In this document: positions 34,639-54,972 of the stretch, one piece after another
Layout of the letters: the number at the start of each line of letters is the position of its first letter
Numbering within the stretch: the stretch's first letter is position 1
Origin: Escherichia coli
Lineage (GTDB): Bacteria > Pseudomonadota > Gammaproteobacteria > Enterobacterales > Enterobacteriaceae
Assembly (NCBI RefSeq): GCF_017348835.2
Contig: NZ_CP071375.1
DNA: 64,000 bases
Direction: 5' to 3' (one strand)
The notes under the pieces: generated by a model
What the model was told of the DNA's origin: nothing
What the model saw: the letters and a program-made list of their open reading frames with translations, nothing else
Database searches by the model: none
Made by a program: the position numbers and the translations under genes

Positions 34639-35043
34639 TTAGATCAGGAAATCGTCGAGAGATTTACCTTCTGCCAGCGCCTGAGCAATTGGCTTCGGTG
34701 TACGGCCCTGACCGGTCCAGGTTTTAGTTTCACCGTTAACATCGGTGAATTTATATTTCGCCGGACGCGGCTGGCGTTTTTTACCAGCGCGTGGTGCAGC
34801 AGCAGAGCTATTACCCAATAACTCTTCCGGGTTAATTCCGTCAGCTTTCATCAGCTCCAGCCAGGTGCTAATTTTTTCCTGGCGCTCTGCCAGTTCACGC
34901 TGCTGCTGTTCTTCTTCTTCACGTCTTTCTTTAGTGACAACCCTGAATTTTTCGAGCATTTCTTCAAGAACGTCAATGGAGAATTCGCGAGCCATCGCAC
35001 GGAGGGTGCGAATGTTATTTAAACTTTGTAACATTACGGACAT
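34639..35043 (-). CDS. stpA: H-NS paralogue StpA
   Basis: 134 aa, [45 protein letters not shown]... Confidence 0.96.
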
Positions 35044-35710
35044 AATAAAGAAAACCTTTTAACGCCAAAACAAAAAAGTATTTCGTCGCGTAGTGTAAGC
35101 GATCACTTATTATATTTCCACAAAATTTAATCTATTTACAGTCCTGCGCGAGATTATTTCAGCTGTTATTTTCTGAAACTCTCAGAATAATTTCAAGATT
35201 ATATATTAGCCATTTTGATGAGTAATTTAGGTTATTGGTGAACAGAGTGGCGCTCTCTGCTCGCTCATTCCGCAAGCCTGACAAAACCGAAGTGAATAAA
35301 AATGCAATATAACAGAATAAAAGAAAATACCCCTCACTGGTGCTTTCTGCTGTTAATGTACATTTTCTGGCATAAAAAATGCTGTAAATGACCCGGTCAC
35401 GACATACACCGAATTCTCTACGCTTATAGCGTTACCTCCCCCCCAAACTTTCATTAGTGAAATTAAAGGCAATGTCATATCTAATTGATTTAATTGAAAA
35501 TAAATCATATCGGCATGTAAAAATCCACAATGTACAAAAAACGAGCCGTTACGGAATATTTTATCTACAAAAACTGACTAAATAAAAATTTTTCACTAAT
35601 TGATTAGTCATAGCCAGCGATATACGCTATGCGAAAATGCAGATGGCAATGAGATCCACTGCTTTCATCTCCATTAACATCCCATTACGCTTTTATTAAG
35701 GAGCATTAGC

Positions 35711-36159
35711 ATGTTCTCACCGCAGTCACGCTTGCGTCATGCAGTTGCAGATACGTTCGCGATGGTTGTTTACTGTTCTGTCGTGAACATGTGTATTGAA
35801 GTTTTCCTCTCCGGAATGAGCTTCGAACAGTCTTTTTATTCCAGATTGGTAGCGATTCCGGTGAACATCTTAATTGCATGGCCATACGGTATGTACCGCG
35901 ATCTGTTTATGCGGCGGCACGCAAAGTTAGCCCGTCGGGCTGGATAAAAAATCTGGCGGATATCCTGGCTTATGTGACGTTCCAGTCACCGGTGTATGTG
36001 GCGATCTTGTTAGTGGTGGGCGCAGACTGGCATCAGATTATGGCGGCGGTCAGTTCAAACATCGTTGTTTCGATGTTGATGGGGGCGGTTTATGGCTACT
36101 TCCTCGATTATTGCCGCCGACTGTTTAAAGTCAGCCGTTACCAGCAGGTAAAAGCCTGA
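35711..36159 (+). pseudogene. alaE: L-alanine exporter AlaE (YgaW) with an apparent 1-bp deletion frameshift
   Basis: Two overlapping ORFs (35711-35947 and 35878-36159) in different frames together reconstitute a 149-aa AlaE-like protein; the frame breaks in the run ATGCGGCGGCACGC about 35911-35920. Confidence 0.75.
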
Positions 36160-36195
36160 CTCTTCTTTTCGCGACTGGCATCGCCAGTCGCGTCT

Positions 36196-36540
36196 TTAAC
36201 TGGCTTCGCCAAATAAACCATTCAAATAACGTTCAAGCGCAACACGCGAACTAAAGCCATGCGGGATACCGTAATGCTCGTGTCGCTCGCCTGCTAAATA
36301 GAGCGGAAATTGTTGATAATGATCGCAAGTTTTAATATCGGAAGCGGGTTCAGCCAGTGGCGAACTACGTTCTTTTAATGTTGGATGAATTACCAGTGCG
36401 GTACGTCCCATTCGCGCTTCGCGATTAACATAGACATAATTTTCCCCACGGCGGTAACCATACGCTTTCTGGGTTACCACATCGACAGTAAAACCGACTT
36501 TTTCAAGTACGCGCGCCACCTCGTCTGGTCGTAAATACAT
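36196..36540 (-). CDS. ygaC: Conserved protein YgaC (DUF2002)
   Basis: 114-aa ORF; synteny between alaE and ygaM. Confidence 0.85.
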
Positions 36541-36691
36541 ATTTGATCCTCGTTATTATCAACCGCGGGCCTACCTTACCTGATTGCGCATTAACAACGC
36601 TTTCAGAAAAGTCCATAAAGCCGCGATGAACCTCAGTTAAGAAAATTATGGTCTACACTGAAAATTACATCGAATTCTAATGGGGGATCAT

Positions 36692-37021
36692 ATGTTTAAC
36701 CGACCGAACCGCAACGACGTTGATGATGGCGTGCAGGATATCCAGAATGATGTCAATCAATTAGCTGACAGCCTCGAATCTGTATTGAAGTCCTGGGGCA
36801 GCGACGCCAAAGGGGAAGCTGAAGCCGCACGCAGTAAAGCTCAGGCATTGCTGAAAGAAACCAGGGCGCGAATGCATGGTCGTACTCGCGTCCAGCAAGC
36901 CGCACGCGATGCCGTTGGCTGCGCGGATTCTTTTGTTCGTGAAAGACCCTGGTGTAGCGTGGGTACAGCAGCTGCGGTAGGTATTTTTATCGGCGCACTG
37001 TTAAGCATGCGCAAATCGTAG
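36692..37021 (+). CDS. ygaM: Ribosome-associated, membrane-anchored protein YgaM (ElaB/YqjD family)
   Basis: Start at MFNRPNRNDVDDGVQDIQNDV (109 aa); C-terminal TM anchor. Confidence 0.88.
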   Translation: MFNRPNRNDVDDGVQDIQNDVNQLADSLESVLKSWGSDAKGEAEAARSKAQALLKETRARMHGRTRVQQAARDAVGCADSFVRERPWCSVGTAAAVGIFIGALLSMRKS

Positions 37022-37052
37022 TGCAAAAATGATAATAAATACGCGTCTTTGA

Positions 37053-37081
37053 CCCCGAAGCCTGGCTTCGGGGTTTCTTTT
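37053..37081 (+). terminator. Intrinsic terminator after ygaM
   Basis: CCCCGAAGCC-TG-GCTTCGGGG stem followed by TTTCTTTTT. Confidence 0.7.
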
Positions 37082-37140
37082 TACCTGGTGAATCACAAAA
37101 ATCCCCCTACCCCGTCACGCTCATATCCAGGGTAATTTCG

Positions 37141-37268
37141 ACCACTATTTGCTATATATTGTGTGGTTGAATCTTTTTTCAACTACATCTAGTATCTCTG
37201 TATCAACAGAGAGACAACCCGACGCGTATCATCGCGCCGTATCTTCATTTTAAACGGAAATACGAATC
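37141..37268 (+). promoter_or_regulatory. nrdHIEF promoter region with probable NrdR/Fur operator sequences
   Basis: AT-rich partial palindrome ACCACTATTTGCTATATATTGTGTGGT resembling an NrdR box upstream of nrdH; sites not individually verified. Confidence 0.35.
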
Positions 37269-37514
37269 ATGCGCATTACTATTTACACTCGTAACGATTG
37301 CGTTCAGTGCCACGCCACCAAACGGGCGATGGAAAACCGGGGCTTTGATTTTGAAATGATTAATGTCGATCGCGTTCCTGAAGCGGCAGAAGCGTTGCGT
37401 GCTCAGGGCTTTCGTCAGTTGCCGGTAGTGATTGCTGGCGATCTTAGCTGGTCTGGTTTCCGTCCGGACATGATTAACCGTCTGCATCCAGCGCCACACG
37501 CGGCCAGTGCATGA
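37269..37514 (+). CDS. nrdH: Glutaredoxin-like protein NrdH
   Basis: 81 aa, redox motif CVQC ([21 protein letters not shown]). Confidence 0.96.
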
Positions 37515-37921
37515 GCCAGCTCGTCTACTTCTCCAGCAGCTCCGAAAACACGCAGCGTTTTATCGAACGTTTAGGTCTGCCCGCGGTGCGCATCCCGCTC
37601 AATGAGCGGGAACGGATTCAGGTAGACGAGCCTTACATCCTGATCGTGCCCTCTTACGGCGGCGGCGGTACGGCTGGCGCGGTGCCACGACAGGTAATTC
37701 GCTTTTTAAACGACGAGCACAACCGGGCGTTGCTTCGCGGCGTTATTGCTTCTGGTAATCGCAACTTTGGTGAGGCGTATGGCCGCGCCGGAGATGTGAT
37801 TGCCCGGAAATGCGGCGTGCCGTGGCTGTACCGTTTTGAACTCATGGGTACGCAAAGCGATATCGAAAACGTTCGTAAAGGAGTAACCGAATTTTGGCAA
37901 CGACAACCGCAGAATGCCTGA
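37511..37921 (+). CDS. nrdI: Flavodoxin-like protein NrdI
   Basis: 136 aa, [23 protein letters not shown]...; overlaps nrdH stop and nrdE start. Confidence 0.96.
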
Positions 37922-40038
37922 CGCAGGAAACGATGGATTACCACGCGCTGAATGCGATGCTTAACCTCTACGATAGCGCAGGTCGCATTCAGTTCGATAA
38001 AGACCGCCAGGCCGTTGACGCCTTTATTGCGACGCATGTGCGTCCGAACAGTGTGACCTTCAGTAGCCAGCAGCAGCGCCTGAACTGGCTGGTCAACGAA
38101 GGTTACTATGATAAAAGCGTTCTTAATCGCTACTCTCGCGACTTTGTCATTACGCTGTTTGCCCACGCACACACCAGCGGTTTTCGTTTCCAGACATTCC
38201 TCGGGGCATGGAAGTTTTACACCAGCTATACGCTGAAAACATTCGACGGTAAGCGTTATCTGGAAGATTTTGCTGATCGAGTCACGATGGTGGCGCTGAC
38301 GCTGGCACAAGGCGATGAAACACTGGCGACGCAGCTCACTGATGAGATGCTGTCAGGACGCTTTCAGCCAGCCACGCCGACATTCCTCAACTGCGGTAAG
38401 CAGCAGCGCGGCGAACTGGTTTCCTGTTTTCTGCTGCGTATTGAAGACAATATGGAGTCGATTGGCCGGGCGGTAAATTCCGCACTGCAGCTGTCGAAAC
38501 GCGGCGGCGGCGTGGCATTTTTGCTGTCGAATCTGCGGGAAGCGGGCGCGCCAATTAAACGTATTGAAAATCAATCTTCTGGCGTAATTCCGGTGATGAA
38601 AATGCTGGAAGACGCATTTTCCTATGCCAACCAACTCGGCGCGCGTCAGGGGGCAGGTGCAGTCTATTTACATGCTCATCATCCCGATATTCTGCGTTTT
38701 CTCGATACAAAACGGGAAAATGCCGACGAAAAAATCCGCATTAAAACACTGTCGCTGGGCGTGGTGATCCCGGATATCACTTTCCATCTGGCAAAAGAGA
38801 ATGCGCAGATGGCGCTGTTTTCGCCCTATGACGTTGAGCGAGTTTATGGCAAGCCGTTTGCCGATATCGCCATTAGCGAACACTATGACGAACTGGTTGC
38901 CGATGAACGCATCCGCAAAAAATACCTCAACGCCCGTGATTTCTTCCAGCGACTGGCAGAAATCCAGTTTGAGTCCGGCTATCCCTACATCATGTATGAA
39001 GACACGGTAAACCGTGCTAACCCTATCGCCGGGCGCATAAATATGAGTAATCTCTGCTCAGAAATTTTGCAGGTTAACAGCGCCTCAGAGTATGACGAGA
39101 ATCTCGACTATGCCCGCACAGGCCATGATATTTCCTGCAATTTAGGTTCGTTGAATATTGCGCACACCATGGATTCCCCCGATTTTGCCCGCACGGTAGA
39201 GACTGCCGTGCGCGGTTTAACGGCAGTATCAGATATGAGTCATATCCGCAGCGTGCCGTCCATCGAAGCCGGAAATGCCGCCTCGCATGCCATCGGACTA
39301 GGGCAGATGAATTTACACGGCTATCTGGCGCGAGAAGGCATCGCTTATGGTTCGCCGGAAGCACTGGATTTCACCAATCTCTATTTCTATGCCATCACCT
39401 GGCACGCACTGCGTACCTCGATGTTGCTGGCACGCGAACGCGGTGAAACCTTCGCCGGGTTCAAACAGTCACGCTATGCCAGTGGTGAATATTTTAGCCA
39501 ATATCTGCAAGGGAACTGGCAGCCGAAAACGGCGAAAGTTGGCGAACTGTTTGCCCGTAGCGGTATTACGTTACCTACCCGTGAGATGTGGGCGCAACTG
39601 CGCGACGACGTGATGCGCTACGGCATTTACAACCAGAATCTTCAGGCGGTGCCGCCAACCGGTTCTATCTCTTATATCAACCATGCTACGTCGAGTATTC
39701 ATCCGATTGTGGCGAAAGTAGAGATACGCAAAGAGGGCAAAACAGGACGCGTTTACTACCCTGCCCCGTTTATGACTAACGAGAATCTGGCGCTGTATCA
39801 GGATGCTTACGAAATCGGCGCAGAAAAGATCATCGACACCTACGCGGAAGCGACTCGCCATGTCGATCAGGGTTTGTCGCTGACGCTGTTTTTCCCCGAT
39901 ACCGCCACCACTCGCGATATCAACAAAGCGCAGATTTACGCCTGGCGCAAGGGTATCAAAACGCTCTATTACATTCGCCTGCGTCAGATGGCGCTGGAAG
40001 GCACTGAAATTGAAGGCTGCGTCTCCTGTGCACTTTAA
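37894..40038 (+). CDS. nrdE: Class Ib ribonucleotide reductase alpha subunit NrdE
   Basis: 714 aa; RNR large-subunit active-site region (NLCSEI) and C-terminal redox cysteines (CVSC). Confidence 0.97.
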
Positions 40039-54057: not shown

Positions 54058-54202
54058 GGTCTTCTCGCAAGTCGAAAAATATGACGCTACTTTAGCGTAA
54101 TTGCTTGATTTTGTCGCTGATGGCGAAGGAGAAGAAAATTCAGGAAATGGATAAAGTAGTTATTTAGAAATGAGATATTTTTGAAGGAAATTTTTTGGAG
54201 AA

Positions 54203-54337
54203 GATGGTGCATCCGGGAGGATGACTCACTGGCGTTCGCCCTTCGGGCCGTTGCTAAAGCAACGTTATCCTTCCTGGTGCCTGCGATTAATTCCGCTACC
54301 TCTTCGATATCTTCATTGCTGAAGATTTCGGAGAATA
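54203..54337 (-). repeat. About 135-bp tRNA-linked repeat (copy 1): tRNA-Arg 3'-end mimic plus long hairpin, downstream of argQ
   Basis: Begins with tRNA-Arg acceptor-like TGGTGCATCCGGGAGGAT; inverted repeat CCGGGAGGAT...ATCCTTCCTGG; near-identical to copy 2. Confidence 0.6.
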
Positions 54338-54414
54338 TGGTGCATCCGGGAGGATTCGAACCTCCGACCGCTCGGTTCGTAGCCGAGTACTCTATCCAGC
54401 TGAGCTACGGATGC
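54338..54414 (-). tRNA. argQ: tRNA-Arg (anticodon ACG)
   Basis: Reverse complement GCATCCGTAGCTCAGCTGGATAGAGTACTCGGCTACGAACCGAGCGGTCGGAGGTTCGAATCCTCCCGGATGCACCA. Confidence 0.93.
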
Positions 54415-54475
54415 ATCGGGAAAATTTATTTTACTGCTGATATTGATATCGCTACTAAAGCCATATCAAGTAAGA

Positions 54476-54612
54476 GATGGTGCACCAGGGAGGATTACTC
54501 GCCTTGCGGCTCGCCCTTCGGGCCGTTGCTGGCGCAACGTTATCCTCCCTGGTGCCTGCGGTTAATTCCGCTACCTCTTCGATATCTTCATTGCTGAAGA
54601 TTTCGGAGAATA
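54476..54612 (-). repeat. About 135-bp tRNA-linked repeat (copy 2) between argZ and argQ
   Basis: TGGTGCACCAGGGAGGAT ... ATCCTCCCTGGTGC perfect 13-bp inverted repeat enclosing about 45 nt; shares the 3' 60 bp with copy 1. Confidence 0.6.
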
Positions 54613-54689
54613 TGGTGCATCCGGGAGGATTCGAACCTCCGACCGCTCGGTTCGTAGCCGAGTACTCTATCCAGCTGAGCTACGGATGC
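54613..54689 (-). tRNA. argZ: tRNA-Arg (anticodon ACG)
   Basis: Sequence identical to argQ copy. Confidence 0.93.
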
Positions 54690-54751
54690 ATCGGGAAATT
54701 AATTTTACTGCTGATATTGATACCGCTACTAAAGCCATATCAAGTAAGAGA

Positions 54752-54828
54752 TGGTGCATCCGGGAGGATTCGAACCTCCGACCGCTCGGTTCGTAGCCGA
54801 GTACTCTATCCAGCTGAGCTACGGATGC
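54752..54828 (-). tRNA. argY: tRNA-Arg (anticodon ACG)
   Basis: Sequence identical to argQ copy. Confidence 0.93.
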
Positions 54829-54892
54829 ATCGGGAAACTTACTTTACTGCATATTTTTTGATACCGCTACTAAAGCCGTATCAAGTAAGAGA

Positions 54893-54969
54893 TGGTGCAT
54901 CCGGGAGGATTCGAACCTCCGACCGCTCGGTTCGTAGCCGAGTACTCTATCCAGCTGAGCTACGGATGC
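54893..54969 (-). tRNA. argV: tRNA-Arg (anticodon ACG)
   Basis: Sequence identical to argQ copy. Confidence 0.93.
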
Positions 54970-54972
54970 AAA

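Follow-up and report, generated by a model that had tools for sequence, protein, structure and literature searches.

A one-base deletion most likely inactivates the alanine exporter gene alaE in one clonal lineage of Escherichia coli

The alaE locus in the 64-kb stretch of Escherichia coli DNA analysed here (the window) raises the question of whether this gene for an L-alanine exporter is truly broken or only appears so through a sequencing error. The initial annotation had left both options open after noting two overlapping reading frames, one ending at 35947 and the other starting at 35878, that together resembled one AlaE protein. Both frames are found in the mechanical ORF list (Table 1), and the naming of the gene stands, since both match the Pfam AlaE family (PF06610). 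Against a curated cut-off of 25 bits, ORF1 aligned to profile positions 2–72 of 141 (E = 3e-31, 108.8 bits) and ORF2 to positions 67–140 of 141 (E = 8e-32, 110.7 bits), such that the two jointly span positions 2–140 and the locus as a whole is homologous to the family (PF06610/TC 2.A.104). The gene order stpA–alaE–ygaC–ygaM–nrdHIEF is identical in the window, PE164, O157, F2_81 and K-12, and alaE was found in 5,417 of 5,426 complete E. coli genomes, making it a near-universal core gene. An Rfam scan of window positions 33000–38000 returned no RNA families.

We aligned the locus to alaE of reference strains, as the initial annotation had proposed. A single gap of one base separates the window from each of four intact alleles (O157:H7 PV15-279, F2_81, K-12 MG1655 and 503025), in the context ATGCG[C]GCGGCACGC, and the deletion-bearing junction reads ATGCGGCGGC. 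This bears out the predicted 1-bp deletion and narrows the frame switch, previously put at about 35911–35920, to the boundary 35913/35914. Because the 449 nt of the window gene match the intact 450-nt O157 allele at every position except the missing C, a chance pattern is excluded. The C was lost inside an alternating CGCGCG run spanning codons 68–70; the site is not a homopolymer, and is therefore not a typical context for homopolymer errors.

Table 1 Features of the alaE locus, in window coordinates
Feature	Coordinates	Strand	Description	Basis
Shine-Dalgarno AAGGAG	35698..35703	+	7 nt 5' of the alaE ATG (35711); start signals intact	Read from sequence
alaE 5' fragment (ORF1, 78 aa)	35711..35947	+	68 native codons (M1–R68), 10 out-of-frame codons and stop; hydrophobic segments 1–2 and R45 kept	
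1-bp deletion site	35913..35914	+	C of codon 68 (CGC) missing between both bases	Alignments; junction 40-mer
Premature TAA	35945..35947	+	Stop in the shifted frame	Sequence; ORF list
alaE native-frame remainder	35914..36159	+	Untranslated; codons 69–149 and stop; encodes D84 and hydrophobic segments 3–4	
ORF2 (93 aa)	35878..36159	+	Native-frame remainder extended 5' to a fortuitous ATG	Mechanical ORF list
A_AAG tetramer	35923..35926	+	In the ORF1 frame (GCA AAG, 35921–35926); a -1 slip would regain the native frame; speculative	
stpA	34639..35043	-	Upstream neighbour; conserved synteny	PE164 annotation mapped onto the window
ygaC (DUF2002)	36196..36540	-	Downstream neighbour; conserved synteny	ORF list; PE164 annotation

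At the protein level, the loss turns codon 68 from CGC into CGG, another arginine codon, and the shifted frame then adds ten wrong residues before the TAA. Removing the same C in silico from an intact alaE allele reproduced the 78-aa product of the window exactly. A compensating second indel is absent, with a single gap against the intact alleles and ORF1 ending at the TAA. AlaE is a protein of 149 residues with four transmembrane segments (PMC7176098, PMC10299036), its export is driven by the proton-motive force (PMC4554458), and residues R45 and D84 are cited as essential in PMC7176098. The hydropathy profile of the intact protein contains four hydrophobic stretches (approximately residues 11–38, 41–61, 85–108 and 109–132), and places the frameshift in the loop between the second and third. 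In place of one chain of ~149 aa with four such segments, the window encodes a 78-aa product with segments 1–2 only; R45 lies in ORF1 and the D84 codon only in the downstream frame, leaving the C-terminal half of the gene out of frame and the two residues in separate frames. Because hydrophobic segments 3–4 and the essential D84 are lost, the truncated product is most likely a null allele, that is, a non-functional exporter.

To find other carriers, we searched 5,426 complete E. coli genomes with a 40-nt query that was centred on the junction and unable to seed on intact sequence. Only PE164 (NZ_CP114128.1) contained it, and the other 5,425 genomes did not. PE164 is a pig O108:H9 aEPEC/ExPEC hybrid strain; its record is separate from that of the window, is 100% identical to it over window positions 35650–36220 and differs over 64 kb by three SNPs and one indel on the same flanking haplotype. 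A second O108:H9 isolate, PE150, belongs to the same study, and the paper on PE164 mentions neither alaE, pseudogenes nor alanine (PMC12233904). An exact-sequence look-up in a public collection further recovered the 78-aa product, aberrant tail included, from 18 contigs of separate NCBI, ENA and SRA (Logan) datasets, the sources including GCA_032490275.1, ERR9804580, SRR17729764, SRR27418558, ERR14374684, SRR14865169, SRR33453118 and SRR30937708. The junction was present in all eight distinct carrier loci that were read, seven of which were identical to the window (100%) or one SNP apart over 1.9–20 kb (the locus from ERR9804580 has one private SNP). A literature search on the carrier accessions (JAUERP, GCA_032490275 and the SRR/ERR numbers) found only unrelated papers.

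A rare haplotype surrounds the deletion: in a 24-kb comparison with complete genomes, PE164 and F2_81 alone approach 100% identity to the window, and the following best reach 98.3%. Because almost all carriers share this haplotype, the deletion follows lineage and not sequencing platform. As expected of a genuine frameshift pseudogene, the lesion recurs in separately produced datasets and tracks shared ancestry of the flanking sequence instead of technology. Furthermore, alaE has no secondary damage, which suggests that the deletion is recent. Judged from sequence comparison, alaE in the window is thus very probably a genuine, recent and clonally inherited pseudogene, cells of the lineage most likely lacking the AlaE 'safety valve'. 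Between the two options of the initial annotation, the strain-specific pseudogene is favoured, the same deletion having turned up in PE164 and on 18 contigs, almost all of the rare haplotype.

If the deletion were instead a consensus error in a CG-rich run, with the C present in the true genome, one would have to explain why 18 contigs from separate NCBI, ENA and SRA datasets carry it bound to one rare haplotype, and why it is missing from 5,425 other complete genomes sequenced with all technologies. The run, not being a homopolymer, also shows essentially no other length variants: across ~15 billion proteins, the other modelled variants (CG4, an inserted C, an inserted G and a deleted G) were not found and CG2 occurred on a single contig. 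As one variant in one lineage was seen, and not a spectrum of variants across lineages, the data point to one inherited event and not to an error-prone site. Two observations lean the other way: at least one assembly of the lineage has an indel discrepancy, a T in glaH at window position 26044 that separates the window from the PE164 RefSeq record, and in other strains the CG run is where many Logan contigs stop, which hints at a difficulty for assembly there. Against F2_81, however, the 64-kb window contains no other coding indel. Taken together, an artefact is highly improbable and close to excluded, and the alternative of a homopolymer or CG-run sequencing error raised in the initial annotation is disfavoured by the separate datasets, the single rare haplotype and the nature of the site.

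The contig breaks within the CG run were seen in strains with intact sequence, where the Logan contigs read (L012–L018) end at the same base (...TTTATGCGCGC; window ~35909–35916). Hundreds of Logan contigs break off in this run, and the corresponding 68-aa N-terminal AlaE fragment (P0003) is listed in 315 blocks of the collection. A codon 69 SNP that might cause these breaks was found in none of five aligned alleles.

Among relatives with an intact gene, the closest is F2_81, an Australian pig isolate in which the C is present and the standard AlaE protein (WP_000492656.1) is encoded. A literature search on this strain found only unrelated papers. Over 64 kb, the only other indel between the window and F2_81 is one of 2 bp in a tandem tRNA-Arg cluster, and the window assembly is therefore not indel-prone. 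The cluster (window 54200–54970) holds most of the differences between the two sequences, among them this indel and a group of adjacent substitutions identical to a neighbouring repeat copy; by their sequence, these look like gene conversion among the tandem units. The window and PE164 also differ within this cluster, at position 54852. Two further positions, 6778 (A versus C) and 22114 (A versus G), distinguish the window from both PE164 and F2_81, and by this comparison belong to the window's source strain, or to its assembly, alone. In glaH/csiD, the RefSeq sequence of PE164 contains an additional T at window position 26044 (CACCGA[T]CTATG), and glaH is consequently annotated there as 'frameshifted'. 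This T is missing from the window, F2_81 and the GCA_032490275.1 contig, all of which have an intact glaH; it is thus confined to the PE164 assembly and is either an error or a mutation private to that strain.

One carrier departs from the common haplotype. In the 1,580-bp metagenome contig L010 (SRR30937708), the same base is missing from a haplotype that differs at 15 SNPs, and the best match of this contig among complete genomes is 99.1%. Taken at face value, it would favour a mutational hot spot or switch, in which the CG run repeatedly loses and regains a base and alaE toggles on and off among lineages. We give this idea very little credence: the deletion occurs in only one of 5,426 complete genomes, seven of the eight loci read share the haplotype of the window, the CG4, inserted-C, inserted-G and deleted-G variants are absent with CG2 limited to one contig, and L010 is itself a short metagenome contig that is perhaps chimeric. 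We saw no sign of convergent loss at the CG-run site. Nonetheless, given L010, a single event may not be the whole picture, whether because of recurrence, recombination or a chimeric contig. At L010:469 (equivalent to window position 35965), a C-to-A change creates an ATG (ATATCATGG), which gene calling takes as the start of a 64-aa ORF for the C-terminal part of AlaE.

A different alteration of alaE was encountered in the public collection. In contig L011 of SRR22969638 (L011:2701–2732), alaE codon 68 runs directly into CTGATGAATCCCCTAATGATTTTTATCAA, which we take to be the terminal sequence of IS10/Tn10; L011 possibly represents an alaE copy interrupted at this point by a Tn10-type element, perhaps in a laboratory transposon mutant.

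Even a real frameshift need not abolish a protein entirely, and two routes to residual AlaE activity deserve consideration. In the first, a -1 slip on the A_AAG tetramer that follows the deletion by 10 nt would give a 149-aa AlaE that differs from the native protein only at residues 69–71 (AAR to RHA) and provides useful export. The motif lies in the right frame, a slip would regain the native frame exactly, and no tetramer in E. coli is more shift-prone than A_AA.G (PMC4066793). Nevertheless, tetramers that lack a stimulator shift at about background in this species (0.147% versus 0.112%; PMC4066793), folding of the downstream 51 nt (35915–35965) shows no significant structure relative to shuffled sequence (z = -0.08), and the motif is out of frame in every intact allele and hence not selected for this role. 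Useful rescue by this route is accordingly very unlikely. It is slightly less likely still that the deletion falls short of a clean null, with a few ribosomes slipping and a low, possibly tunable alanine safety valve being kept; if true, a core transporter gene would offer a natural example of a frameshift mutation undergoing 'translational correction'.

In the second route, the N-terminal part (segments 1–2) and a separately translated C-terminal part (segments 3–4, from the ATG at 35878 or a later start) would assemble into a working exporter. The native-frame ORF does span the whole C-terminal half, but the ATG at 35878 has no preceding Shine-Dalgarno sequence. Termination-reinitiation is also unlikely, the ORF1 stop being 70 nt downstream of this ATG. 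A conserved split arrangement is not seen elsewhere, and the carriers form one clone. A functional split gene is, on this evidence, extremely unlikely, and simple loss of function is the reading we carry forward.

The consequences of such a loss can be outlined from work on intact AlaE. The exporter acts as a 'safety valve' that is induced via Lrp upon alanine accumulation (PMC6801825), and D-alanine is exported as well (PMC10299036). Deleting alaE in MG1655 lowered the MIC of Ala-Ala from >1.25 to 0.04 mg/mL and raised intracellular alanine, and the gene is reported to guard cells against alanine overload in peptide-rich gut contents (PMC6801825). In the proposed sequence of events, one C would have dropped out of the CGCGCG run at codons 68–70, within the loop that joins hydrophobic segments 2 and 3; translation would start normally, shift frame after R68, append ten wrong residues and stop at 35945–35947; and the 78-residue product, without D84 and the last two of its four transmembrane segments, would presumably be unable to export alanine. 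A lineage deprived of the valve would then be expected to build up L-alanine and to show hypersensitivity towards Ala-Ala and other alanine-rich peptides, and we infer from the sequence both a loss of export activity and Ala-Ala hypersensitivity in the carriers. Other exporters or DadA-dependent catabolism could compensate for the loss.

For annotation, the implication is that the alaE frameshift should stay a true pseudogene and not be 'corrected' in curation. The deletion also offers a simple way of recognising the PE164-like pig O108:H9 aEPEC/ExPEC lineage. That a gut pathogen lineage persists without alaE suggests that, in the pig host, the valve can be dispensed with or its loss compensated, which is a modest point and no surprise.

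Three known alleles place the lesion in context. In PE164, alaE (LZG51_RS05360) has the same deletion and is already labelled 'frameshifted' by PGAP/RefSeq; the lesion is thus known and flagged in public annotation, and is a case of ordinary lineage-specific gene decay. The K-12 gene (ygaW, b2670; PF06610, TC 2.A.104) resembles that of the window in its location between stpA and ygaC, its start codon and its Shine-Dalgarno sequence, and apart from the missing C the two differ at one further, synonymous position; the K-12 frame is unbroken, whereas that of the window is broken after codon 68, with D84 and transmembrane segments 3–4 out of frame. A further truncating lesion is an A6-to-A5 allele (88-aa product; for example BDY96716.1 and VFS40420.1), in which the loss of one base likewise cuts AlaE short in this loop region, after K80. 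The window has the normal A6 at this run (35944–35949, in GGATAAAAAATCTGG). Unlike the window deletion, the A6-to-A5 change affects a homopolymer, 30 nt downstream, and is much commoner, being found on 197 contigs, including complete genomes; an A7 allele of the same run (139-aa product) is on a few. The A6 run is a typical site of homopolymer slippage or long-read error, in contrast to the site of the CG-run deletion.
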